From NCBI GenBank assembly GCA_963773065.1, contig CAVYZN010000032.1, positions 32,001 through 96,000 of the forward strand: a stretch of 64,000 bases of DNA, given 5' to 3'. The translations under genes and the position numbers were made by a program. This DNA is from an uncultured Gammaproteobacteria bacterium. Its GTDB lineage: Bacteria > Pseudomonadota > Gammaproteobacteria > UBA9214. Positions 19,318 to 60,776 of this stretch are shown here, piece by piece (positions within the stretch are counted from its first letter, which is position 1; each line of letters opens with the position of its first letter). The notes below the pieces were generated by a model. The model was not told the DNA's origin. It did not search any database and worked only from the letters and a program-made list of their open reading frames with translations.

Positions 19318-19555
19318 TGGGCATCTCCCGAGAAGTGATTGCAGGATATCCTGCGGGTCATCCCTGTTTCCGCGACCCGGTCCGTTGTTCCTGTGCCCCT
19401 ATAAGTGTAGCCGGTCGTAAGAGGGTGCGCGTGTGCTTTCCGCCTGACATACCCGTCTAAGCAGCGGGCCGATCGCAGGGAGGCATGATAAAGAGCACCG
19501 CTTAACGCCAGCCAACTTGTGATGCTGAATGTCCACTCGATGGAGGGTGTTTCGG

Positions 19556-47820: not shown

Positions 47821-48104
47821 GGGAGCGGGCTGCGTTGCCTGGGTTCACAAGGGTTTTCTGGCAGTTGATGGACAGGCACTATTAAAAAGTGGTTATAGTG
47901 CACCACTCCATGGAACCTCGCCATAGAAACCTATTTAAGTCCATGACGGCCGGGCGCAATAACGCCGGCGTATTGCGCCGCAGGGAACGTCACCTGCGGC
48001 GAATTTCACTTTCGCTGATTCGCCCTCTGATATGAATGGCACTTACTTAAGCCGAAATGTTGGGAGAGCAGCGGCCGTAAAATGCGTGCGAGCTAACGGC
48101 CTTG

Positions 48105-48710
48105 TCAGGGCTGGCTGACTGGCGGCTGATAACTGACATTCTCATTCTCAATCACGACATACTGCCGCTGGCGCAATTGCTCGATCAGGCTCATCAACTC
48201 AGGTTCTCCAAGCGTTTTCATAAACAGCGCGTTGATCGTATTGGCCAGGGTTTTGACCTTGCGCGGCCGGGAGTGGCCACGGGCGGAAAGGCTTTTTTCG
48301 ATAGCGGCAATCTTCTCTTCGGATGATGTGGCGTTCGAGATTCTCAGCAAAGGTATTTCGGATAGATCCCTTACCCGCTGGGCAACTATCTTTCTTGCTT
48401 TTAGATGCTTGATGAGCGGATCGAAGCCGGTATCTTTCGAGATGATATGGAAGCAGGCATTGGGTTCACGTTCCGCCAACTGGCCGACATAGAATGCGAT
48501 GTGAAAATCCAGGGCATTGGAACCATTGCCGCCGATTTTCACGTACTCGGCATTACTGCCCAGCACTTGCAGCGATGCGGCGAGATCCAACGGCACCTTC
48601 GATTGACTGGCGCCGACGAAAACCAGCACCTTGAAGGGATGACCATTGAGAAGAGTCAGGTTCTTTGGCTGGACATTCTCGAAATCAATCAGGATGTAGT
48701 TGGTGTTCAA
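48105..48710 (-). CDS. PIN-domain protein (cassette-like)
   Basis: YILIDFENVQP, NALDFHIAFY.G, IISKDTGFDPLI; TTG start behind AGAGGA; stop overlaps an R''-like CCCTGAC. Confidence 0.75.
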   Translation of the reverse strand: MNTNYILIDFENVQPKNLTLLNGHPFKVLVFVGASQSKVPLDLAASLQVLGSNAEYVKIGGNGSNALDFHIAFYVGQLAEREPNACFHIISKDTGFDPLIKHLKARKIVAQRVRDLSEIPLLRISNATSSEEKIAAIEKSLSARGHSRPRKVKTLANTINALFMKTLGEPELMSLIEQLRQRQYVVIENENVSYQPPVSQP

Positions 48711-48769
48711 GCGGTATCCTCTTTTTCTTTTCCAAGCGTTCGTAAAATAAATCTGTCCACATTTCATCT

Positions 48770-49265
48770 CTTTTCTTCTATTTGTTGTGGCCACGCCTGG
48801 CCAGTACTTCCAGAGTACAACAAAAGTGATGTAGTGCGTCACCAGCAACGCAGGAACCCAGAACGCGGGTATCCAATAGGCCGGACCCATATACGCCGAC
48901 GCTCCATAGAGCGTAGCCAGCGTTATAGCGGCGATCAGGTCTACCGTTCCCTCCACGTTGAAAATCCATACGAGCAGCCGGGCGCCGCGGGCATTTCTGA
49001 TCACGACCGGTATCGCGGCCAAGGCCAGCAGGGCGGCAAGCAGGTCTCCGAATGCCGCCGGATAGGCGAATCGCGGAGGGATACCCGCGTAGGTGGCACC
49101 AGGCGCGAGAAACATCAGTCCGAGGTGTCGAAACGCATGGAGCAGGAGAATCGGCGGTAGAACGACCTGCGGCTTGAGTTCCGGCAGTTTCGGCAGGAGG
49201 TAGATCCTGGCGGCAAGCCAGAACACGAATGTACTGAATAGAAGATTGACAGTGAGAATGTTCAT
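48770..49265 (-). CDS. Multi-TM hypothetical membrane protein, read through into the PIN gene
   Basis: Five hydrophobic segments; own stop codon missing where a hairpin repeat lies. Confidence 0.6.
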
Positions 49266-49370
49266 CGAATAGCCCTTGCAGCGTTATTCACGCTTGAAAA
49301 GTGATCTGATCGGGGTAGCGGATGCCTCGCAACAACCCAGCCTGGTATAGCTCGCACGCAACGCATCGGA

Positions 49371-49976
49371 TCAAACCAGAGCCTGGGTGTCGCACTCGCT
49401 GCGCTCGCAAGACCGCTCGCGCGCATGCTTCATCGCATTCGCATACCACTCGAGTTCGGTCAGAAACCGGCTCGCGCGCCGCGGATAGTTGGCATCGACC
49501 GGTGTCCCGTCGTCCCCGAAGGCATCTTGTACGGCCGGAATCGGCAGGATGGAAGGAATACTCGCCATCCCCATCTCCGCCAGCATGGCGCGCAGCGTCA
49601 TCGCCGCGCGCACGCCACCGAAAGGACCCGCCGAATAGCAGACGATCGCCGAAGGTTTCCAGAAGTATTCCTCGAGAAAATGGTCCATAAGATTCGTGAG
49701 CGCCGGGGGCACGGTATGGTTGTACTCCCCCGAGACGACGATGTAGGCGTCCGCCGGAATGATGATGCGCGCCAGACTTTGCAGCACCTGGGGAGCCTCG
49801 TGCGGATCGTATTCCTTGTACATCTTGTCGAGCAGTGGCAAGGGATACTGCAGTGGATCGATCAAGGTGACTTCGTGCCCGCGTTCGCGGCATTGGTTGA
49901 CGATGAATCGCGCCGCTTTTATACCCTGTCGCGCCGAGCGAACGGAGCCGTAGAAGACGACGATGTTCAGGGGCAT
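49371..49976 (-). CDS. NADPH-dependent FMN reductase family
   Basis: YGSVR, EYNH..P.AL.N..D, YSAGPFGGVRA. Confidence 0.88.
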   Translation of the reverse strand: MPLNIVVFYGSVRSARQGIKAARFIVNQCRERGHEVTLIDPLQYPLPLLDKMYKEYDPHEAPQVLQSLARIIIPADAYIVVSGEYNHTVPPALTNLMDHFLEEYFWKPSAIVCYSAGPFGGVRAAMTLRAMLAEMGMASIPSILPIPAVQDAFGDDGTPVDANYPRRASRFLTELEWYANAMKHARERSCERSECDTQALV

Positions 49977-50119
49977 ATTCGTGACTCCTGCATGGAGGAT
50001 TGAAGCATACTCCTCTTGCGTTCCGGTTCAATCGGAGTGTGGGGGCGGCGCCAAGGCTCGTTTATTTTCCGAGTGTTGAGAAAATAAATCTGTCACCTAT
50101 TCCGGTTGTCAGATACCGG

Positions 50120-50449
50120 CTACTTGTCGCCGGTAATCGTTTGTTCTACTGACGGATCGGCCCATGGAGTGCCTTGGAGTCGAGACTGGTAGAAACGCTG
50201 ACAGTTCGCCAGGAATTCCTCTCGAACGGGGAGCGTGTCGTGAGGGTACGTCGGCTCTTCTTCGACCAATCGCCATAGCGCAACATCATTAAGCCAGCAT
50301 AATGAATGTCCTGTCTGCGACCGATGGTCGCGTATACCGTCTCGTAGCCGCTGCACTTCTTTTGCCAGGCGGGATATGACTGACACATCGCTGGAACAGT
50401 ACTCCGCAAGCTCGGAGTCGGCGATATAATCGTCTTTGTTTTGCGTCAT
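50120..50449 (-). CDS. Hypothetical protein (cassette-like)
   Basis: 109-aa ORF with RBS, followed by R''-like ATCTGAC. Confidence 0.6.
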   Translation of the reverse strand: MTQNKDDYIADSELAEYCSSDVSVISRLAKEVQRLRDGIRDHRSQTGHSLCWLNDVALWRLVEEEPTYPHDTLPVREEFLANCQRFYQSRLQGTPWADPSVEQTITGDK

Positions 50450-50483
50450 GACGCCTTCCGTTCCTGTTTGAAAAACCCGGGCC

Positions 50484-50650
50484 AGAGAAGAATGGTACTT
50501 ACTTAAGGCAAGAGTCCGAATTTTTCGTCATTCCCGCGGAAGCGGGAATCCAGGAGGTTTCATGAATGTCTGGATTCCGGCTCTGCGCTGCGCTCCGGCC
50601 GGAATGACGGTTATGCAGAAGTTCCCCTTAAGTAAGTGCCATTCCTCTCT
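50484..50650. repeat. MITE-like element (GAATGGCACTTACTTAAGG inverted ends) enclosing a GTCATTCCCGC palindromic repeat (50527-50608)
   Basis: Inverted ends at 50490-50508 and 50626-50644; solo copy at 48034-48051. Confidence 0.75.
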
Positions 50651-50815
50651 GATCCGGCTTTATACTCGCCCGGGATGGGACCATACGTTGATGAGCTGAA
50701 CCAGAGTTGTCCGTTCATCGTTGTGCTGCCCAGCGTTCGACGCGATGCGTCCGCAACGGCTTGCCGTCGTGTGTCGCCTCGACGGAGGGTGCAGGCGTCA
50801 TAATCGATTCGGTTC

Positions 50816-51433
50816 TCACCGCACGACCCGGTACGTGATGTGAGTGACGAGCGGTGAGCTGCTGGCGCCCACTTGCTCCAGCCTGAAGCTGGCCGGATCG
50901 AGGTGATCCAGCAACCGAATGCCGGTGCCGAGCAGTACCGGAGCAATGTGCAGGGTGAATTCATCGATGAGGCCGGCTTCGATGAACTGCCGGATGGTTT
51001 CGGCGCCTCCCGAGACCCGCACATCCTTGCCGCCGGCGGCGGCTCGGGCCTGATCGAGGGCGCTCGCGATGCCGTCGGTGACGAAGAAGAAGGTCGTTCC
51101 GCCCTTCCTTGGCCAGGGTTCGCGCGCGGAGTGCGTGAGGACAAACACGGGTGCGCGGAACGGCGGGTTCTCGGGCCAGCCGACTTCTCCCTCGTCGAAC
51201 ATGCGACTGCCCATCACATACGCGCCCGCGCGCTCGAAAACCTCCCTGACAAGCGCATCATCGGGTGAAGTCTCCCCGCCCGACAAACCGATGCGTTCCA
51301 GAAAGCTCGCCGTCTGGAACATCCACTCGTGAATGCGGGTGCCCCCATCCCCCAGCGGGTTACCCGGACCCCGGTTTGTGCCGGCGAGATAACCGTCCAG
51401 CGAAACGCCAACGTCGAAGAAGACATTGCTCAT
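50816..51433 (-). CDS. Dihydrofolate reductase-like (RibD C-terminal) protein
   Basis: SLDGY.AG, MG.RMF, GGA.TI..LIDE..HIAPVLLG.G.RL. Confidence 0.88.
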   Translation of the reverse strand: MSNVFFDVGVSLDGYLAGTNRGPGNPLGDGGTRIHEWMFQTASFLERIGLSGGETSPDDALVREVFERAGAYVMGSRMFDEGEVGWPENPPFRAPVFVLTHSAREPWPRKGGTTFFFVTDGIASALDQARAAAGGKDVRVSGGAETIRQFIEAGLIDEFTLHIAPVLLGTGIRLLDHLDPASFRLEQVGASSSPLVTHITYRVVR

Positions 51434-51576
51434 GTTTTCGCTCCTGTTGATTGACGGAGTGCCGGCCTCTGTGCGTGACGCTTACCTCCGCTCTTGAGAC
51501 GCGGTAATAATAACCGGGTCAGAGTACAAATAAGGCTAATATTAGCGAATATTGTTCTATGAACCAGGTTTTTCTG

Positions 51577-51837
51577 CTATATGCCGCAACACTTTTTAAA
51601 CTTCCTTCCGCTTCCACAGGGGCAGGGGTCATTCCGCCCAATCGATTCTTCCACTCGATAGGGTTCGGATGGATTCAGCAGTCGCTAGACATTACTGATG
51701 TCTTCCGGTGCATCAGGTTCAATTCCGGCGATCACCTGCCAGCCATTTGCAGTGCAGATGGCCACGATTTCCTCGGCCCTTTCCTGGGTGGCGACTCTAA
51801 CCACGGCCGGATGTTTCCTTGTCCCGAGTTTCGCCAT
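51577..51837 (-). pseudogene. SEC-C motif metal-binding protein with in-frame TAG at 51685-87
   Basis: [45 protein letters not shown]. Confidence 0.85.
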
Positions 51838-51859
51838 GCTCTTGGTTCTCTGTCATTAC

Positions 51860-51920
51860 TGCCAATGACAGCGCTAAGCCGCGCCGCTTTTTGGCGGCGG
51901 CTTGAGCGTATAGTTGGGGC
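51860..51920 (-). other. attC site (R' mutated to ATT)
   Basis: - strand CCCCAAC-TATAC-GCTCAAGC..hairpin..GCTTAGC-GCTGTC-ATTGGC; L'' has the extra base. Confidence 0.75.
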
Positions 51921-52152
51921 ACAGTTGCTGGTAAAGGAACTCCGGCGCGAAGTCCGCCCCGTTGGGCCAGACAATGGTTTCAAGTTCCTCATCCAGAAAC
52001 AACTCCGCGAATAGCGCCTTATCATTCAATGGCTGGAACATTTCACCCCACAGTTCGTCTTCAAGGTCGACTTCGCCTTCCACTCCATCTGCAAACCTTA
52101 ACCAGATACGGTAGTCACCTTGATACCTGGCTTCTCGCAATTTCGGCAACAT
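51874..52152 (-). CDS. DUF2442 family protein
   Basis: DYRIWLRFADG..GEMF.PL..TIVWPNGADFAPEFLY. Confidence 0.88.
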   Translation of the reverse strand: MLPKLREARYQGDYRIWLRFADGVEGEVDLEDELWGEMFQPLNDKALFAELFLDEELETIVWPNGADFAPEFLYQQLCPNYTLKPPPKSGAA

Positions 52153-52156
52153 GGCA

Positions 52157-52417
52157 TTACTCCAGCGGTTCAATTTTCTTCAAGGCTTTTCTGTCTCGGG
52201 CCAAATTCCAATCTTCGGTCAGCTCGGTTTTGTGATATTCGCGCCACTCTTGCACCAGACCCAAAACACGGGGAGGCAAACGGCCCTCGATTACCTCACC
52301 CGTATCTATCGCAATGACTGCTACAAAATCCCCATACTTCGCATGAAAGTGAGGAGGATTATAATCGTTGAAGTACATGGCGATAATGATGCCAAGGAAT
52401 CTACTGATTACCGGCAA
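52157..52417 (-). CDS. DUF4160 family protein (TA-like partner of DUF2442)
   Basis: MP.ISRF.GI.I.MY..PPHFHA.Y..I.PLE. Confidence 0.88.
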   Translation of the reverse strand: MPVISRFLGIIIAMYFNDYNPPHFHAKYGDFVAVIAIDTGEVIEGRLPPRVLGLVQEWREYHKTELTEDWNLARDRKALKKIEPLE

Positions 52418-52432
52418 GATATCTCTCCATGT

Positions 52433-52513
52433 CTATACAGCCCTCATCGATTCAACATACGCGACTGGTTCAAGATGCTCGGCCTCCGCGGCAGGATGAA
52501 AGTAATAGCTCAT
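52433..52513 (-). pseudogene. RelE/ParE toxin N-terminal remnant
   Basis: MSYYFHPAAEAEHLE..Y; overlaps the antitoxin stop codon. Confidence 0.7.
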
Positions 52514-52734
52514 CTAAGCAAGGCCTGTGCTTTCTTTCTGACCTCTTCCGCAGGGATGGGTTGCACAATGCCTTCGTCGAGTTCTCTGGCTCGACGGTGT
52601 GCTTCAATCAACCAATCTTCTTCTATTTCATCCATATTTTGCGCATCAAGACTCAATAGGAGTTTCTGTGTCAACTCTGCTCTTTCTTCCTCTGATAGAT
52701 GAAGAGCTTCATCTTCAATTTGCTTTAGGTTCAT
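52510..52734 (-). CDS. Addiction-module antitoxin component
   Basis: EAL.LS.EERAEL...LL.SLD..W..EA.RR. Confidence 0.85.
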   Translation of the reverse strand: MNLKQIEDEALHLSEEERAELTQKLLLSLDAQNMDEIEEDWLIEAHRRARELDEGIVQPIPAEEVRKKAQALLR

Positions 52735-52754
52735 GTCTTTCTCCTGAATCAGTG

Positions 52755-52834
52755 ATTGGGACAGAAATATTTTCCATGTGTTCGGAAAATAAATCTGTCA
52801 CCATTTCTGTCCTAAAATAAACCTGTCCCCATTT
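52755..52834. repeat. GGGACAGATTTATTTTCC-loop-GGAAAATAAATCTGTCACC hairpin element; other copies at 48728-48764, 50061-50102, 54516-54568, 58712-58732
   Basis: Five co-oriented copies; four share the internal TTTTCCnnG(T/C)GTT(C/G) loop segment. Confidence 0.85.
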
Positions 52835-52864
52835 CATGTCACCGAACTCATGGCGCACTAGGCC

Positions 52865-53338
52865 TTACTTGTTCTGGCCCGCCTCGACGAATGCCGCGAG
52901 TTTGTCGAGTGCCATCCGCCAACCGGTTTCGTTGTCAGCGGTCGACAGGCCAGGCGGCAGGTTGTCGTGTACGGCGAGCACATCCGTGCCGCCGTCCGCC
53001 TCAGTGAGCGTGAACGTGACCATCATCTCGCCGCGCATCGCGGCATCGGCCGTCTCGAACTCCATCACTTCGACCACCTGCTCATTGGGTACGAGCTTGA
53101 CGAAGTGGCCGTGGTAGGTGTCGGTGTGCGCGGTCGTCTTGCCGGTCCCGGTCGGCTCGTCGTATGTGAGCGAGATTCTGAACAAACCACCTTCGCGAGC
53201 GTCAAACACATGCACGTGGCTGGTCATGCCAGTCGGCACCATCCATGTCGCGACCGCTCGCGCATCGAGAAGCGCGCCATAGACGTTTGCGCGAGGCGCG
53301 TTCACATGGCGACGGGTGCGCGTAGAGGTGGTGGCCAT
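52865..53338 (-). CDS. SRPBCC/AHSA1-like protein
   Basis: APR..VY.A..D..W..P, F..LVPNE..V, GWR..LDKL. Confidence 0.85.
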   Translation of the reverse strand: MATTSTRTRRHVNAPRANVYGALLDARAVATWMVPTGMTSHVHVFDAREGGLFRISLTYDEPTGTGKTTAHTDTYHGHFVKLVPNEQVVEVMEFETADAAMRGEMMVTFTLTEADGGTDVLAVHDNLPPGLSTADNETGWRMALDKLAAFVEAGQNK

Positions 53339-53367
53339 AAGTTGAATCCCCCACGGCGGATTGTGAC

Positions 53368-53443
53368 GCCTGACGCCGCGGTTCAGGCTCGACCCGGCCG
53401 AGCGAAGCGAGGCTGGGACGTCTCCTGGAACCGCTTGTTGGCC
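53368..53443 (-). other. attC site (R' = GTCAGGC)
   Basis: - strand GGCCAAC-AAGCG-GTTCCAGG..hairpin..CCTGAAC-CGCGGC-GTCAGGC. Confidence 0.8.
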
Positions 53444-53453
53444 GACACACGGC

Positions 53454-53639
53454 TCATCTCAGGCTCCGGAACGCCCAAACGCAGAGGCTGCCGGTGACGG
53501 CCGCCGCTATCCATGATGCCCACACGGGCACCTCGAAACTTCCGACGTGCACGGGCAACTGACTGAGTGCGCGCCATGTTTGAGCTACGGCAACAAAACC
53601 GAAGATCAGGCCTGAAACCACAACATATTTGTTGGACAT
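53454..53639 (-). CDS. Small two-TM hypothetical protein
   Basis: GGAGG RBS, two hydrophobic segments, followed by attC. Confidence 0.65.
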   Translation of the reverse strand: MSNKYVVVSGLIFGFVAVAQTWRALSQLPVHVGSFEVPVWASWIAAAVTGSLCVWAFRSLR

Positions 53640-53677
53640 GACTGCCTCCGAATCGAGGAGCCATGATACTTGAAACC

Positions 53678-53731
53678 AATCGAGGGGTCAGAATACTTGA
53701 AAAACTGTTCAAATACTCTGACCCCTCGATT
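53678..53731. repeat. AATCGAGGGGTCAGA(G/A)TACTTGA hairpin element; half copies at 51515-51530 and 58310-58339
   Basis: Near-perfect inverted repeat in the sequence. Confidence 0.8.
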
Positions 53732-53751
53732 ACGTCGTAGGCTCGATGGGC

Positions 53752-54186
53752 TTATTGGTACGTTTTACCGTCATGCATTAACCAGCCATCGATATGTCGA
53801 TTACCTGGGTCATGGTGTGTCCAGTGGATAACTCCACCTTTCGGATTCCACTCGTATTCACCATAGAACGCTACGGTATCCCCGGTGCTCAATCCGCTGA
53901 CCCTGGGCGCCAGATCGATGTTATGAGTCACCAACACTGTTTGCCCGGTATCGAGCCTTAGAATGAACCGTTGGTGCCTCGATCCATCAACATCATCAGC
54001 CAACAGCTTCGTGACAATGCCTTCTCCCTGTACCTGGAGATCGCTTTGTCTGTTGTCATAGGCATCCTGGAGAGTATTGTCAGCGCCCCGGGTCCATGAG
54101 GAAAGGCCGGGCAGGGAAATGCCTTGTTCCTGAACGAACCCGTAGGCCAATGCTGCAACGACAACCAGGACAAGAAGTTTTTTCAT
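53752..54186 (-). CDS. DUF3465 domain exported protein
   Basis: DD..GSRHQRFIL, HNIDLAPR, GEYEWNPKGGVIHWTHHDP. Confidence 0.88.
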   Translation of the reverse strand: MKKLLVLVVVAALAYGFVQEQGISLPGLSSWTRGADNTLQDAYDNRQSDLQVQGEGIVTKLLADDVDGSRHQRFILRLDTGQTVLVTHNIDLAPRVSGLSTGDTVAFYGEYEWNPKGGVIHWTHHDPGNRHIDGWLMHDGKTYQ

Positions 54187-54195
54187 GTTTTTCCA

Positions 54196-54276
54196 ATGTA
54201 ACATGCAGGTTCAGAGACCGGCAGCCGGCAAGCGTAGCGTTGCTCCTTGACGGTTACTCGGGACCACAGGTCAGGC
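54196..54276 (-). other. Degenerate attC site
   Basis: - strand GCCTGAC directly after stop ... CTGAAC-CTGCAT-GTTACAT. Confidence 0.55.
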
Positions 54277-54507
54277 TTAGTCGCCACACCACTGCGACTC
54301 GCAGGGAATGCCATCACCGTCACCATCAATTTCCACGCCGGGGCAGTTATCCAAATAAAACGTCGCCTCTTCGCAGGAGTTCATCTCATTGCAACGGGAC
54401 TTTCCCTGGCATTGAAACCCCGGAGTGCTGTTGCTCTGTGTCGCGGACTGGTCACTTCGGAGAAGTTCGACGTGACTCGTTTTCTGGGTGAATTGCTGCC
54501 ACCCATA
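54277..54507 (-). pseudogene. Excalibur calcium-binding domain protein, 5'-truncated
   Basis: FQCQGKSRCNEMNSCEEATFYLDNCPGVEIDGDGDGIPCESQWC*; no start codon before the repeat at 54516. Confidence 0.85.
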
Positions 54508-55179
54508 GTAAGAGTAATTGGCACAAATTTATTTTCCAAGTGTTCGGAAAATAAATCTGTCACCTTTTCTCGTATGACATGAGCGGCAGCCCACGGTTTT
54601 CCGTGAGCTACCGGCGATAGGAGGTTAGACCTCTTCGGGGAGTGCGTACTGTGTGATATCAATCGTCTTCTCACCCTTCTTGCGACGCAGGGTGTATTTA
54701 TTTCCCTTGCGGTAGATGACTACATGCCAGTACGTGCGGTCATCTTTCGTCGTGGTCCACGATCCTTCAAGCCACGGCTCGAACTCGGTGAAAGGAATGA
54801 GGATGAGTCGCTTGCTACTGCCGCAACCGAAGGCGACATAGGCCTTCGGATGTGCACGTAAGAACTCCTGCTGGTGCGGATGAAATGCGAACCAATAGTT
54901 GGGATTGGTCTCGGGGTTGTGCTCCTTCGACACGGAACAGTTCAGTGCCATGTCCTTGTCCGGTGAAGAATACCCCGCGCGACTACGCTTTACGAGAGAA
55001 ACGCCGAGCGCGGCTTGTACCCGTTGCACGCAAGCTTCGTGGAAGGCCACCGGCTTGAACTTCGGCCCTTCTGGCCCAACGGGCGCGGCGGCGTCTTCTA
55101 CCTCCACTGACTCCTCATCCTGTTTGATCTCCTCTGCTGCCGAAAACAGTATGTCGGCGATTGCATCGAGACGAGTGAA

Positions 55180-56812
55180 CCTTACTGATGCATAAAACTC
55201 AGGCATGAAGGAAGAAATACGCTTGTATTATAGGGCCCACGACTCATTCGTCCCCTGATCCTGGGGTTCACTGATAGTGCATTCCAGAAGATGGTAAAAA
55301 TGACGATGAAAGTCCGCGTGTAACCATAAAAAAACGGTTTCCGAATTGGTAGAATGCGTTTGCCAAAACCATCCAACCAATCAAAAGGAAACCGTTCACG
55401 ATGAAGTGTAGCAGAGCCGAAATACACCGTAAAACCTACCGGCTTCCCGCGCTGAGTTTTGAAGACCAACAGCTCACCTCGTTCTCGGGACTCATTATTT
55501 TCCAGGCGCTGTTTGCTCGTCTGCAACTTAAGCGCCGGCTCAGCGGCTGTTTTGAGCATCTGCGCCTCACCCCGATCTTCGGCCATGGGGTGATGGTGTT
55601 GCTGCTGGTGGTGCATTTGCTGCTGGGCTACCGGGAACTGCGTGATATCCGCTACTACCAGGACGACCCGCTGGTGCGCCGAGTGCTGGGGCTTACCCGA
55701 TTGCCGGATGCCTCGACCCTGAGCCGGGCTCTCGCGAACACCGATCAGGCAAGTGCCGAGAAGCTGCGCCGGCTCTGCCGGTGCCTGGTCCTGGAGCGTC
55801 TGGCACGTCTGGAACTGCAGCGCATTACGGTAGACTTTGACGGCTCGGTGCTCTCCACCGGTCGCTTTGCCGAAGGGGCGGCGGTGGGCTTTAACCGCAA
55901 GAAGAAAGGCCAGCGCAGCTATTATCCGCTGTTCTGCACCCTGTCGCAGACCGGGCAGATCCTGGATGTATGGCATCGCCCGGGCAATGTGCATGATTCC
56001 AACGGTGCCCAGGCGTTCATCCTCGAGTGCATCCGGGCGATCCGCGCGGTGGCACCCCAGGCGCTCATCGAAACACGCATGGACAGCGCCTTCTTCAGCG
56101 ATGACATCGTCCGCTTGCTGGAGGCCCAAGGGGTGCAATACAGCATCAGCGTGCCCTTTGAGCGCTTCGCCAAACTCAAGCGCCTCATCGAGGCGCGCCG
56201 GCAGTGGTGGCGCCACAACGGGCGGATCGCCTATTTTGAGCGGCAGTGGAAACCCAGCACCTGGACACGGCGCGCCCGCTTTGTGTTCATTCGCCAGAGA
56301 AACAAGGTCCAATCCAAGGAACCGGTGCAGCTCGACCTCTTCGTCCCCTTCGCCTGGGGCTACGATTTCAAGGTCATCGTGACCAACAAGCGCGTGCGGG
56401 CCGGCAAGCTCCTCAGCTTCCATAACGGCCGGGGTTCGCAGGAAGGGGTGTTCGCGGAACTGAAAACCGACAGCCAGTTGGAGTATGTGCCTACGCGCAC
56501 GCTCGCGGGTAACCAGATCTATCTGCTCTCGGCGGTGTTGGCGCATAATCTCAGCCGCGAATTGCAGATGGAAACGACGGATAAACAGCGTGCAACCACC
56601 GCCAAGCGCACGCCGCTGTGGGCCTTTGAACGGCTGGATACCCTACGCCGCAAGCTCATTCAGCGTGCCGGCAGGCTCACTCGCCCACAAGGCAAGCTCA
56701 CCTTGACTCTGAGCGCCAATCCCTCGGTCAAAAACGCGCTGTTGCATTATCTGACCGAATTGGATAAGGCCGCATGAGTTCCAATTTCCGGTAAATTTAT
56801 GCAACGCTGGGG
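55180..56812 (+). mobile_element. IS1380-family insertion sequence with TGAA target duplication
   Basis: Imperfect TIRs CCTTACTGATGCATAAA / CCCCAGCGTTGCATAAA; TGAA at 55176-79 and 56813-16. Confidence 0.85.
55401..56777 (+). CDS. IS1380-family DDE transposase
   Basis: LTSFSGL, TVDFDGS, YYPL, RPGNVH, RMDSAF, RG.QE..F.ELK, LAHNL. Confidence 0.9.
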   Translation: MKCSRAEIHRKTYRLPALSFEDQQLTSFSGLIIFQALFARLQLKRRLSGCFEHLRLTPIFGHGVMVLLLVVHLLLGYRELRDIRYYQDDPLVRRVLGLTRLPDASTLSRALANTDQASAEKLRRLCRCLVLERLARLELQRITVDFDGSVLSTGRFAEGAAVGFNRKKKGQRSYYPLFCTLSQTGQILDVWHRPGNVHDSNGAQAFILECIRAIRAVAPQALIETRMDSAFFSDDIVRLLEAQGVQYSISVPFERFAKLKRLIEARRQWWRHNGRIAYFERQWKPSTWTRRARFVFIRQRNKVQSKEPVQLDLFVPFAWGYDFKVIVTNKRVRAGKLLSFHNGRGSQEGVFAELKTDSQLEYVPTRTLAGNQIYLLSAVLAHNLSRELQMETTDKQRATTAKRTPLWAFERLDTLRRKLIQRAGRLTRPQGKLTLTLSANPSVKNALLHYLTELDKAA

Positions 56813-57807
56813 TGAACTCACGAGGAATCAGGATGCTATGGATGCGCTGAACAATAGCCGGGTCTTCGACCTCTTCCTTGATTGACATGAGCCGGAGCAG
56901 TGCATCCACTGAGATGAGGCGGATATCCCAGGCGTAGCGTGAGCCACGGATCTGCGCTTCAAGGTCGCCTGTGTCCTGCCGTCCGACAACGAACAGCATG
57001 GATGATTGGGCTTCCGTTATAACATTCGAGCCTACAAGGTCTCGGCGATAGCCTGCAATCGTGTTGAGATCGATGCGATACGCGTCCGTCGTCTTGACCT
57101 CGATGAGGATCGACTGATTGCTTGGAAAGAGCCACAGCCCATCAAAGCCCGTGTGTTTGACAGTCCCGCGGTAGCGTCCACGTGTGGCGGTAGCTCCGAG
57201 TCGGGCGCCGACTTCGTTGACGATGTCTTGAAGGACGAAACCAGAGTCCGGGAACCCGGACGACAGGCACTGTTCGCAGTACGCGACCAAGTTCGCAGAG
57301 GGAACACTTGCGAGGAAGTCTCGGAACTCCTTTGAGCACGTTCCGTCGTCGGTCAACTTTCCATCGCCTGCAATAGCAACGAGTTGCTGCACCTGCTTGC
57401 CTTGTAACTGCTCAGGTGATTTCTTCCAGAGATCAAGGAGTGACATGCGGTGCAGTCTACGTGTGTTGAGATCTAACTCTATTAGAGGGCCTAAGGATCG
57501 GGTTAGTCATATGATTCTCCTGTCTTTATTAAAATTAACTGGTCTTGAAATCAATTCGGTTGACTCCATATAGCATGGCCTAAAAGGAAAAACAAACTTA
57601 GCTCAAGGCTTTCCCTGAATGTCATTTCGGTTTCTACGTATATCATCGCCGTGAACCGGTCCATGCCGTGCACCAGCTCCCAACTCACGGCCGTCCGAAT
57701 AGTCGGCGGACTTCAGTTGTCAGTGTATTCCTGGATAACACCAGACAGGCATGGCAACGTTCGCCCTGCGTTGTTCCAGTGAAAATCATACGATGATCTT
57801 AATGCCA

Positions 57808-57881
57808 TCGATTCACGACCCACCCAGTACGCTCCAAAGCCGCAAAACGCGTTTTGCCTTCGTACCTGGCCAATGTGTCAC
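57808..57881 (-). pseudogene. HicA-like toxin N-terminal remnant
   Basis: VTHWPGTKAKRVL/AALERTGW; overlaps the HicB stop codon. Confidence 0.6.
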
Positions 57882-58083
57882 GCCGTGGCAAAGGAGATAT
57901 GAATCGGTTCAAGAGGATGTTCGCCGTGCTCGATACGTTCCGCGAGAACCCGGAGCGCGAGCGCCTCGGCTTGTGCAATGGCCGCTTCACGAGCGTAGCC
58001 GTACTTCATTACTCCTGGTAGCTCGGGAATTTCCGCGATCAACGACCATCTTCCTCACGGTCGATTTCCAGTGTGAACATCAT
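57878..58083 (-). pseudogene. HicB-like antitoxin with one -1 frameshift
   Basis: MMFTLEIDREEDGR/IAEIPELPGVMKYG..A..AEALALRVLAERIEHGE. Confidence 0.8.
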
Positions 58084-58120
58084 AGTGTTTACCTCGGTTG
58101 TTTCCCCGCAATGATAGTAG

Positions 58121-58247
58121 GTAGCCGGGTTGAGCGACAGCCACAACATCGCCGGGAGCAATGTTGGACAGACGCAGGCTGGCCCGCAGGCGGAGTCCAT
58201 GGAGGGACTCCGCAAACCCGGGTTTCACTGCGTTCAACACAGGCTAC
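58121..58247. repeat. GTAG-type REP-like inverted pair
   Basis: GTAGCCGGGTTGAGCG ... AACCCGGGTTTCACTGCGTTCAACACAGGCTAC. Confidence 0.6.
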
Positions 58248-58318
58248 CTCCTGCGTCCGGGTTCAGCCAAGTGACGATGAGAGGGTAACCTGGTCGGCGT
58301 CATCGACGGAATCAAGGA

Positions 58319-58612
58319 TCAAGGGCTCAGAGTACTTGAACCGCGCTTTTTGCCGCGTACGCTGGGACGCGATGTCAGGGGTTCTTTGAATTGCGAGGCG
58401 TAAAAATCAAGGAGTCTGCGGATCATGGCTTGATAGGAAGTGTGATTCTTTTTCGCTTCAGTCTTGAAAAACTCGATGCTTGCCTTGCTAAGCGATAGGG
58501 TTACCTTGACGTTCTCCTCTTTGAACACCAAGCTTTCCGGTGGAGGAAGAAAGTCTTCGATTACGCGCACCTTTCCAAGTGGCTCGTCTGAATACTTGAT
58601 TTTGCTCTTCAT
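58319..58612 (-). CDS. BrnA/CopG-like antitoxin
   Basis: KYSDEP..DFLPPPE.L..KVT..LS..FFK..YQ.MIR.LLD.Y; tail reads into an attC remnant. Confidence 0.8.
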   Translation of the reverse strand: MKSKIKYSDEPLGKVRVIEDFLPPPESLVFKEENVKVTLSLSKASIEFFKTEAKKNHTSYQAMIRRLLDFYASQFKEPLTSRPSVRGKKRGSSTLSP

Positions 58613-58690
58613 GGATTCTCTCGACTTTTCGCCAATATCCTGCGCCAATAGGTCTGATGATTCCGTTGAGATAGGTGAACCGGTCCGTGG
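58596..58690 (-). pseudogene. BrnT-like toxin C-terminal remnant
   Basis: RFTYLNGIIRPIGAGYWRK..IHEEQN; 5' part lost next to the repeat at 58712. Confidence 0.65.
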
Positions 58691-58778
58691 GAATTGCGGG
58701 ACTAAACAGCAGAAAATAAATCTGTCACCTATCCCACCACGTTTCTATATGAAATACCGCGTCGACCAGGCGTAATGA

Positions 58779-59165
58779 TCACTCCGTGGCGTCGATCACC
58801 TTCACCCCATAGCGGCCCAACATTCCATCGCTGCTGACGATATCAAGTCCTTCCGCCTGCGCCTGGGCGATGAGCATCCGATCAAAGGGGTCGCGGTGAA
58901 TGGCTGGCAACTCACCCGCCCGCTCACCATGAAAAAAGGTAACCGGCAACTTCTCGAATCCCTCTGCGTCGATGACCCCATCCAGGTCGTCTGGCGCTTT
59001 CAGCTTACCGATGGACTTCTTGATACTGATCTCCCAGGCACTCGCGGCGCTGACATAGACTTCGTTGTTCTCGTTTTCTATGAGCTGTCTCGCATTCGGG
59101 CCCAGGCTCGGATCGTCGGCAAGCCACCACAGCAGGGCTTGGGTATCGAGCAGCAGGCGCTTCAT
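58779..59165 (-). CDS. vapC: VapC (PIN) toxin
   Basis: LLLDTQALLWW, SAASAWEI.IK, HRDPFDRMLIAQA. Confidence 0.9.
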   Translation of the reverse strand: MKRLLLDTQALLWWLADDPSLGPNARQLIENENNEVYVSAASAWEISIKKSIGKLKAPDDLDGVIDAEGFEKLPVTFFHGERAGELPAIHRDPFDRMLIAQAQAEGLDIVSSDGMLGRYGVKVIDATE

Positions 59166-59404
59166 TCCCGCCCCTCGAAGTCCGCCACAAGCTCGGCCGG
59201 CGTCTGGTCGAAATCTTCAGCCAGGGTGATCTGTCCCTTAAGACGTCCAGGTTTTCGCCTGGCGCGTCCCGCCCGATGGGGGAGGAGGTCCAGGTATGGC
59301 TTGCCTGCCTTGGCAATAACCACCTTTTCTCCCTTCCAGACCAATTCTCCCAGCTCCGAAAGCCGGGATTTTGCTTCATGCATATTAACTTGCTTGGTAC
59401 TCAC
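59162..59404 (-). CDS. Phd/YefM family antitoxin
   Basis: VNMHEAKSRLSEL..GE.VVIAKAGKP, R.PG.LKG.I. Confidence 0.9.
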   Translation of the reverse strand: MSTKQVNMHEAKSRLSELGELVWKGEKVVIAKAGKPYLDLLPHRAGRARRKPGRLKGQITLAEDFDQTPAELVADFEGRE

Positions 59405-59431
59405 GGCGAGTGCTCCTGTCAGTGCCAAATG

Positions 59432-59449
59432 TTAGCTAAGTTTAGCTAA
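59432..59449. promoter_or_regulatory. Probable antitoxin operator: two TTAGCTAA palindromes 10 bp apart
   Basis: GTTAGCTAAGTTTAGCTAAT about 30 bp upstream of the antitoxin start. Confidence 0.55.
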
Positions 59450-59654
59450 TTCTATGCGGCTCTGACAACCGGGAGAACTCCGGCACCCAACCATGCCCAA
59501 TCGGCAGCCCAGAGAATCAGGCCGACATAAAACCCGGGTGACCCGCTATCATCCCCACGCCCCGCAGACAGGGATACGGACCGCCTTCCCGAAACCCGAC
59601 CACCAGCACATCAAGCAATGCTCTGGGCGCCCCCGTTTCGCTTTATTTGAGTGC

Positions 59655-60556: not shown

Positions 60557-60754
60557 TTTCACCGCAGAGACGCAAAGAACGCAAAGCAATTCTATGGATT
60601 TTTGTTAAGGACTCTCTGAGCATGTCATCCCCGCGAAAGCGGGGATCCAGTAAGCCAACGATCCGGTAAAGATTGGATTCCCGCTTTCGCGGGAATGACA
60701 GGCTTAATCAGAGACAAAATAATTCCTTTGCGTCCTTTGCGTCTTTGCGGTGAA
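60557..60754. repeat. Nested inverted repeats: TTCACCGCAGAGACGCAAAG..CGCAAAG ends enclosing a TGTCATCCCCGCGAAAGCGGGGATCCA palindrome (60623-60700)
   Basis: Both inverted pairs visible in the sequence. Confidence 0.8.
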
Positions 60755-60776
60755 TAGTATCTTTTCTATATGGCCG

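Follow-up and report, generated by a model that had tools for sequence, protein, structure and literature searches.

Hairpin repeats and insertion-sequence remnants in a low-GC, cassette-like island of an uncultured gammaproteobacterium

Why should short hairpin-forming repeats gather at the junctions and broken ends of genes in DNA that looks like an integron cassette array? This question is raised by a 64,000-nucleotide stretch of the genome of an uncultured Gammaproteobacteria bacterium (GenBank assembly GCA_963773065.1, contig CAVYZN010000032.1, positions 32,001 to 96,000; G000:C32:32001-96000 in our numbering), which as a whole is called the window here and to which all coordinates refer unless another contig is named. 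Within it, a low-GC island (47880-59450) holds copies of three repeat families, termed A, B and C. A preliminary description had taken these repeats for non-autonomous elements, perhaps mobilized by an enzyme acting on single-stranded hairpins, which would target attC, the recombination sites of integron cassettes, and delete adjacent DNA. Our analysis favors a plainer account: probably, repeats A, B and C, together with an IS1380-family element and a fourth dispersed repeat, are leftovers that have piled up in a decaying, integrase-less, cassette-like island, and they do not constitute an attC-targeting system.

Repeat families of the low-GC island

The island covers 11.6 kb (~47.88-59.45 kb), or 0.30% of the genome (3.84 Mb in 33 contigs; 90.9% complete, 6.3% contamination), with a G+C content of 0.49-0.59 inside and 0.65-0.70 in both flanks. 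Its small genes, approximately 18 as judged from open reading frames (ORFs) and Pfam matches, all lie on the minus strand and give the region the look of a cassette array. The three repeat families that had been reported from this region were all recovered by pattern scanning. Repeat A (GGGGACAGATTTATTTTC; island variant GGTGACAG...) occurs at 48743, 50080, 52757/52785, 52813, 54519/54547 and 58712; repeat B (GGGGTCAGAGTACTTGAA) at 53684/53708 and 58323, with a 12-nt partial copy at 51516-51535; and repeat C at 48034 and 50490/50627. When copies were counted genome-wide at up to three mismatches, with reversed patterns as controls (no matches), eight of the 30 A copies (binomial P = 3.7e-14), three of the 14 B copies (P = 9.7e-6) and three of the 43 C copies (P = 3e-4) fell within the island. 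Outside it, A and B copies are mostly found in low-GC DNA, including five of five non-island B copies at or below the 16th GC percentile. As three unrelated families and an insertion sequence (IS) are enriched in the island, and as A and B lie elsewhere in low-GC accessory DNA, the concentration appears to be a property of the region and not of attC.

The description of these repeats as hairpins held for only some of the copies. Compared with shuffled sequences, strong hairpins were obtained at only three of nine A or B sites (52760-52801, 54519-54562 and 53678-53731), all of which are intact inverted doublets. Two of them are A doublets, resembling the REPINs (hairpin-forming doublets of repetitive extragenic palindromic, or REP, sequences): one at 52757-52803 (-12.2 kcal/mol, z = -4.62), and one at 54519-54565 (-11 kcal/mol, z = -4.69), which has its loop and flanks in common with 52751-52808 (88% over 58 nt) and abuts a start-less fragment of an Excalibur-domain gene. 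The third is a B doublet with 24-nt arms at 53678-53731 (-20.6 kcal/mol, z = -10.78), accompanied by a third, partial copy at 53651-53675, so that the whole feature spans 53651-53731. The other sites are decayed doublets or single arms. Four segments fold weakly, with z values of about -0.6 to -0.8 (48712-48770, 50050-50106, 58316-58346 and 58700-58740). They contain a decayed A doublet at 48720-48766 (-2.5 kcal/mol, z = -0.76), inside a fused ORF; another at 50055-50100 (z = -0.80), close to a homology boundary; a plus-strand B arm at 58323-58340, without a hairpin, overlapping the 3' end of a BrnA-like ORF; and a plus-strand A arm at 58711-58735 (no hairpin, z = -0.81), upstream of this orphan BrnA-like antitoxin gene. 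Two more plus-strand copies were judged to be single arms by inspection, namely the A arm at 52812-52836 (52813 in the pattern scan) and the partial B arm at 51516-51535, in which 12 contiguous bases match on direct reading.

Four A doublets have the same loop and flanks, in a version that occurs nowhere else in the genome, and a genome search returned alignments of more than 30 nt to the island A doublets only from inside the island; we therefore infer that one doublet was multiplied locally. The GTCAC variant of A is genus-specific and is also present on other contigs and in genomes G002 and G004, and this multiplication would therefore have taken place in this lineage.

Transposases and insertion sequences behind the repeats

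A Y1/HUH enzyme similar to the REP-associated tyrosine transposases (RAYTs) had been proposed as the agent of mobility, and a search for Y1 genes flanked by the same hairpins was positive for both A and B. The genome has ten Y1_Tnp matches. Its own A-type gene (contig C26, ~19.37-20.06 kb) has at least two frameshifts and lies between inverted A-like copies at 19350 and 20150. When the middle segment of this gene was searched against 54 genomes of the same family, relatives were found in 32. All five of the closest A-type loci (56-100% identity; in G000, G005, G031, G009 and G057) are located between inverted A copies approximately 780-830 bp apart. Among 25 more distant loci, 23 have no inverted A pair (one of them has two close A copies to one side, and one a single match with four mismatches), and the other two have a divergent A variant, on both sides in one case and on one side in the other. 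The distant paralogues each carry their own repeat starting with GGGG(T/A)C(A/G)G; the paralogue in G062 is flanked by the exact B sequence, and the same arrangement is found in G004 and on contig C29 of G009. In a tree of 23 proteins (ten of the 33 loci, with no ORF passing the filter, were left out), repeat type follows protein clade, and the B pair has a support of 98/94.

The intact A- and B-type proteins are 229-245 aa long. Against Pfam Y1_Tnp (cut-off 23), the A-type protein of G031 scores 50.5 bits and the B-type protein of G062 scores 54.9 bits. Repeat A is present in 22 and repeat B in 25 of the 54 family genomes (reversed-control matches, 0 and 2, respectively), with 1-32 copies per genome, often arranged in inverted doublets that differ in their loops and are flanked by AAAA/TTTT. 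Their family consensus sequences, GGGGACAG and GGGGTCAG, fit the motif GGGGWSAS, as do the island B copies except the one at 58323 (GGGCTCAG). In a wider survey of the 80 best homologues among GTDB species, with one genome per species, A was found on both sides of the gene in 21 and on at least one side in 26. These A-flanked homologues come from several phyla and share at least 48% identity, except one at 44% (L213, on one side only); their hosts include Ectothiorhodospiraceae, Methylophaga, Pseudomonas gessardii, Geobacteraceae, Desulfobulbales and Candidatus Scalindua. At loci L180-L210, the A-type gene and a near-invariant GGGGACAGATTTATTT repeat were seen in Gammaproteobacteria, Desulfobacterota and Planctomycetota at 48-72% protein identity. 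The presence of this unit across three phyla suggests horizontal spread of a supposedly domesticated transposase.

As A and B flank their own Y1 genes, the RAYT-like assignment is right for these two families. Judged by sequence, they are the terminal inverted repeats (TIRs) of RAYT-like Y1/HUH transposases belonging to the published TIRtron/TIRYT GGGGWSAS class. They are therefore known kinds of element, and their local clustering is real. In the parts of the article drawn on here (Di Nocera 2013, BMC Genomics 14:522; PMC3733652), TIRYT genes are described as flanked by GGGGWSAS TIRs, which form moderately abundant families and occur as dimers or clusters. The elements studied here share with this account a Y1/HUH gene of ~230 aa between inverted repeats whose outer end fits GGGGWSAS in the family consensus, and the occurrence of the repeats as singles, dimers and clusters; unlike those described, the island copies are degenerate (GGTGACAG), and clustering in a cassette-like island does not figure in these parts of the article. 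The GGGGACAGATTTATTTTC and GGGGTCAGAGTACTTGAA families are placed in the class by its description and not by its published family lists. The same elements also resemble the REP/REPIN-RAYT systems, as presented by Bertels and Rainey 2011 (PMC3116915) and Corneloup et al. 2021 (PMC8266576), in that a domesticated Y1 transposase, present in a single copy, lies between palindromic repeats of its own, that inverted doublets are the unit which replicates, and that each enzyme clade has a separate repeat. In contrast to classical REP-RAYT pairs, A and B have no GTAG tag at either end, the proteins exceed the NCBIfam model (146 positions) in length and fall short of its cut-off in score, and copy numbers range from 1 to 32 per genome instead of hundreds. 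This comparison also draws on what Nunvar (2010) and Ton-Hoang (2012) are said to have reported.

For repeat C, the proposed HUH mobilization fails, as its ends are those of DDE-type elements of the IS4 family. The C motif bounds elements of ~1.5 kb on contigs C2, C6, C11 and C32, with 11-bp target duplications, and their TIR is identical to that of a 189-bp miniature inverted-repeat transposable element (MITE) in the island (50473-50661; 36-nt TIRs). It also bounds ~150-bp MITEs on at least six other contigs, and target duplications of 10-11 bp were read at C copies on C1, C2 and C6. The transposase of the ~1.5-kb element belongs to the IS4 family (130.3 bits; cut-off 115). Repeat C is the terminal repeat of this IS and of its MITEs of ~150-190 bp, and in the shared ends of long and short copies it behaves as IS4-family ISs and their MITEs do. 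It differs from these in that no target duplication is visible at the island MITE, which has four full-length copies at 88-93% identity elsewhere in the genome and a partial one on C22, and in that the second island feature (48026-48056, plus strand, near the left island edge) is a lone end, the solo terminal repeat of a truncated MITE. Elsewhere in the genome, two of the four isolated attC matches have a C-type element nearby, at distances of 431 and 554 nt. A further element, an IS1380-family IS on the plus strand (55250-56835, ends placed by eye), has its transposase at 55401-56777 (NCBIfam, 252.8 bits against a cut-off of 180; Pfam DDE_Tnp_1_4) and interrupts the 3' end of the gene starting at 57446.

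By analogy with RAYT systems, the A and B copies may have reached the island in the following way. A single-copy transposase gene, sitting between two inverted copies of its own repeat, would encode an enzyme that binds the single-stranded repeat in its hairpin form and is able to cut single-stranded DNA and join it again. As non-autonomous units, inverted doublets would spread and accumulate in an island where insertions and deletions cost nothing, and multiplication of one A doublet on the spot would yield four copies with the same loop. Nearness to truncated genes would then reflect the general decay of the island, and deletions ending at a repeat may have contributed at a few junctions. 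As the A enzyme is frameshifted and no B-type enzyme was found in the genome assembly, most copies are probably relics. A striking local pattern would thus be explained by known biology.

attC sites, truncated genes and rival explanations

Sites of the attC type were scored with a covariance model, R1, built from 19 sites in two arrays of relatives, in which nine of 15 predicted pairs show compensatory changes; true attC sites reach 21.5-79 bits with this model, and 42.7 bits were obtained for a same-genus site. Simple scans for R''/R' motifs plus folding were abandoned for this model, as they gave at first nothing and then mostly false positives in GC-rich DNA. With filters off and at E <= 10, R1 found no intact attC in the island. 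The four best matches, all on the minus strand, are located at 51857-51922 (13.8 bits, E = 0.32; R'' and the L''/L' stem kept, R' reading GTCATTG instead of GTTRRRY), 53365-53446 (11.0 bits, E = 1.7; R'' and L stems kept, R' GTCAGGC), 52838-52880 (10.0 bits) and 48088-48113 (8.7 bits). The broken attC sites that had been described at ~53731, ~54570 and ~58339 gave no match at this threshold, and the weak matches lie elsewhere. In addition, none of the six TIGR02249 matches in the genome reaches the 265-bit cut-off for an integron integrase (best, 81.8 bits), whereas integrases above the cut-off are found in 25 of the 54 family genomes, and classical integrons occur in relatives. An intact integrase in G001, ~21 kb from the orthologue of the HlyD gene that flanks the island, was considered as the source of the island and rejected, as the array, given the orientation of this integrase, lies on the far side and at the end of the contig.

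The island is at most a badly decayed cassette array. Homologues of its Excalibur gene have an attC 22 nt downstream in G017 and G060 and two attC sites just upstream in G003, and a paralogous SEC-C gene on C16 starts directly after AAAC|GTTGGCA, which support this reading. Clusters of attC sites lacking an integrase (CALINs), as Cury et al. reportedly defined them in 2016, are recognized by detectable attC sites. The island resembles them as an integrase-less, toxin-antitoxin-rich run of small same-strand genes with an Excalibur family that adjoins attC in relatives, and differs from them in its best attC score of only 13.8 bits.

In relatives, the repeats are not concentrated at attC, contrary to the targeting that had been suggested. 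No attC match was found in 26 repeat-bearing loci (74.9 kb), nor in 46.7 kb of G009 DNA holding most of its 32 B copies, and two arrays with 23 attC sites (L038 and L040) contain no copy of the A, B or C patterns. A scan with 13 repeat types over 14 array loci (95 attC) found none within eight loci that hold 72 of the attC sites. In five genomes chosen only for attC number and assembly quality, with 64 doublets and 95 attC sites between them, a single doublet is located within 100 nt of an attC. In the 27 attC-cluster neighborhoods of these genomes (314.8 kb, 117 attC), three of 55 GGGGWSAS motifs lie within 100 nt of an attC, a zone that makes up 7.6% of the DNA (P = 0.8), and none of the four strict doublets does. 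In the article texts covered, REP/RAYT elements and attC or integrons were linked by analogy only, and no association was found.

Gene truncation coincides with a repeat most clearly at the Excalibur-domain fragment (54277-54516, minus strand; Pfam, 38.8 bits), where the reported loss of the 5' end was borne out: the ORF (54280-54516) lacks a start codon and the N-terminus, and its reading frame continues until it meets a stop codon within the A doublet; homologues have 15-120 more N-terminal residues. The decayed A doublet at 48720-48766 is read through by a 386-aa ORF (48105-49265) that fuses a hydrophobic protein to a PIN7 domain. Similarly, homology with the same-genus genome G002 ends at 50105, 5 nt from the A doublet at 50055-50100; however, this breakpoint is common to G002, which has no repeat there. 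The proposed loss of a BrnT 5' end at 58712 was not substantiated. The fragment resembles BrnT C-termini in a by-eye comparison; it has no Pfam or NCBIfam support, no PF04365 match was obtained at E <= 10 in a genome scan, and a word-index search for longer homologous proteins returned none. Truncations also arise without these repeats, both in the island and in its sister island in G002. In the former, a 26-codon start of a toxin-like ORF (52436-52513, minus strand; no Pfam match), which we take to resemble RelE/ParE N-termini, follows an Unstab_antitox gene and has no repeat at its cut; other island lesions away from the repeats are a nonsense codon in a SEC-C gene, a frameshift in a HicB-like gene and the gene interrupted by the IS. 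In the latter, a RibD_C gene with an internal deletion and a gene reduced to a stub of 117 nt are without any copy of A, B or C. At single junctions, the elements may have caused deletions.

Several findings weigh against passive accumulation in a decaying island and must be set beside this evidence. An excess of eight of 30 A copies in 0.30% of the genome is extreme for a passive process, and A or B is found at eight of the island's 16 gene junctions, approximately in the places where one would look for attC (taken along the minus strand, five junctions have A, three B, two C, one an IS, two a weak attC-like match only and three nothing). The placing of the elements in the TIRYT class is itself imperfect, as the island A copies read GGTGACAG or TGGGACAG and not exact GGGGWSAS, and as the best NCBIfam model, the REP-associated tyrosine transposase NF047646, is matched at 66.3 and 74.7 bits, under its equivalog cut-off of 80. 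In a partly biased set of 14 array loci, nine of 28 repeat units lie within 100 nt of an attC, and in the five genomes three of 64 doublets lie within 1 kb of one, compared with a rough expectation of 0.5. The proximity tests have low power, as few doublets lie near arrays, and the motif test has little power because the GGGGWSAS 8-mer occurs at about chance density. There are also single cases of close neighborhood: on contig C3 of G062, a toxin-antitoxin cassette with an attC at each end is enclosed by two doublets, one 13 nt from the first attC and the other 8 nt from the second; on G059:C6 (L094/L150, ~97110-98030), a run of five attC sites is followed, 22 nt after its last site, by the start of a TIRYT unit with GGGGTCGGATACATTT repeats; and on G059:C1 a doublet lies 25 nt from an attC.

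Some of these findings speak for the original proposal that hairpin elements, moved by a Y1/HUH enzyme acting on single-stranded hairpins, prefer folded attC, delete adjacent DNA and thereby freeze and erode the array. Both systems act on folded single strands, an analogy made in Corneloup 2021 (PMC8266576); a half attC-like stem can be read directly at ~58340-58370 before the B arm, and the Excalibur fragment ends exactly at a doublet. Nevertheless, we regard this proposal as unlikely in view of the missing attC sites in the island and in the repeat-bearing DNA of relatives, the arrays free of repeats, the 50105 breakpoint and truncated genes of G002, and the enrichment of a DDE-type MITE and an IS in the same island. 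Elements such as the IS1111-attC group (DEDD transposase and guide RNA) and the group IIC-attC introns are whole autonomous elements with a fixed position in intact attC. The island repeats would resemble them as mobile DNA in integron recombination sites, able to disable these; unlike them, the repeats are HUH-associated, with no intact attC and no fixed insertion point seen. A looser interaction, in which cassettes come to lie beside or between RAYT-like doublets, as in G062, or in which repeats replace attC at cassette 3' ends and so convert arrays into frozen islands such as this one, independent of an integrase, likewise seems improbable to us. Were it true, RAYT-like enzymes and integrons, two systems based on single-strand hairpins, would be connected, and cassette arrays would have a way of decaying or moving that needs no integrase.

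Alternatively, the doublets could be functional parts of cassettes, either as bidirectional terminators or operators or as substitute recombination sites for a Y1 enzyme replacing IntI/attC. The AAAA...TTTT flanks of the arms in relatives, where they often lie just downstream of genes and once directly after a tRNA gene, would suit such a role, as would the position of the island repeats at 3' gene junctions and the bracketed attC-cassette-attC unit of G062. However, only three of the nine island sites still fold, the units between successive doublets hold several genes and fragments instead of single cassettes, and no A- or B-flanked cassette turned up in more than one setting. That these sequences are found on either side of their own transposase genes in several phyla speaks for mobile DNA and not for a cassette function; we therefore consider a functional role quite improbable. 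Finally, an artefact of chimeric assembly or binning, as might be feared for a metagenome-assembled genome with the contamination and completeness given above and with several genes bearing single nonsense or frameshift lesions, is very improbable indeed. The island lies within a 379.5-kb contig, its left flank is syntenic with same-genus genomes, and for its right flank there are matches, on separate contigs, in genomes of the genus and in others of the family. Moreover, G002 has a different island at the same site, with fragments of some shared genes in changed order, and the GTCAC variant recurs outside this contig. Accumulation of mobile-element leftovers in decaying DNA is thus the explanation that we retain.

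Some arrangements of repeats and attC sites were recorded as observations in their own right. At the G062 locus (L154, 10100-11020, minus strand), the single cassette has an intact attC on each side (52.9 and 44.3 bits) and is bracketed by two GGGTCAGACTCGATT doublets. A TIRYT gene on C17 of the genome under study (85844-86575) lies ~740 nt from an isolated attC (34.2 bits). In G059, there are two A-like palindromes of 32 nt, a perfect one at L153 3998-4029 (GGGTACAGATTTATTT plus its reverse complement) and a near-perfect one at L150 8712-8743, each with an attC at a distance of 61 nt; both may be parts of one duplicated cassette.

Other genes and repeats of the island

In same-genus genomes, the flanking HlyD gene is common up to ~47878, with divergence beyond; the islands that adjoin it there contain no A, B or C copy at up to three mismatches and no attC by the covariance model. 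The genes of the island itself match PIN7, FMN_red, RibD_C, DUF2442, DUF4160, Unstab_antitox, AHSA1 and DUF3465 in Pfam, with, in addition, a weakly matching BrnA-like antitoxin, a PIN/Phd pair and one plus-strand transposase; toxin-antitoxin pairs are present. The SEC-C-motif gene occurs twice in the genome, in the window (51577-51865) and on C16 (131483-131771), the two copies being 92% identical. A nonsense change, from GAG to TAG, is present at ~51685 in the window copy. Homology runs from TTGGCAG to the stop codon, and everything downstream differs between the two copies.

Intact brnT-brnA-like pairs are located on C11 (351.7-352.9 kb) and C16 (108.6-110.2 kb), with A-like single arms within a few hundred bases after them; for a third such pair, on C26, no A-like arms are listed. 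At 58036-58090, the reading frame of an antitoxin gene without a Pfam match, presumably a HicB-like one, is split by a one-base frameshift (...EEDGR* followed by LIAEIPELPG...).

Between 47.5 and 61 kb, no known RNA was found with Rfam, the sole match scoring 25.3 bits against a gathering score of 50. A dispersed repeat of ~135 nt, the fourth of the island, lies at 58116-58254, upstream of the HicB-like gene, and no ORF or Rfam family explains it; copies with 87-91% identity are found on C11, C23 and several contigs of G004, and weaker ones (~80-87%) in G017, G014 and G005. Just outside the island, a segment of ~200 nt (60558-60756), which aligns with itself in either orientation and is also found in many genomes of the family, probably represents a further palindromic MITE.

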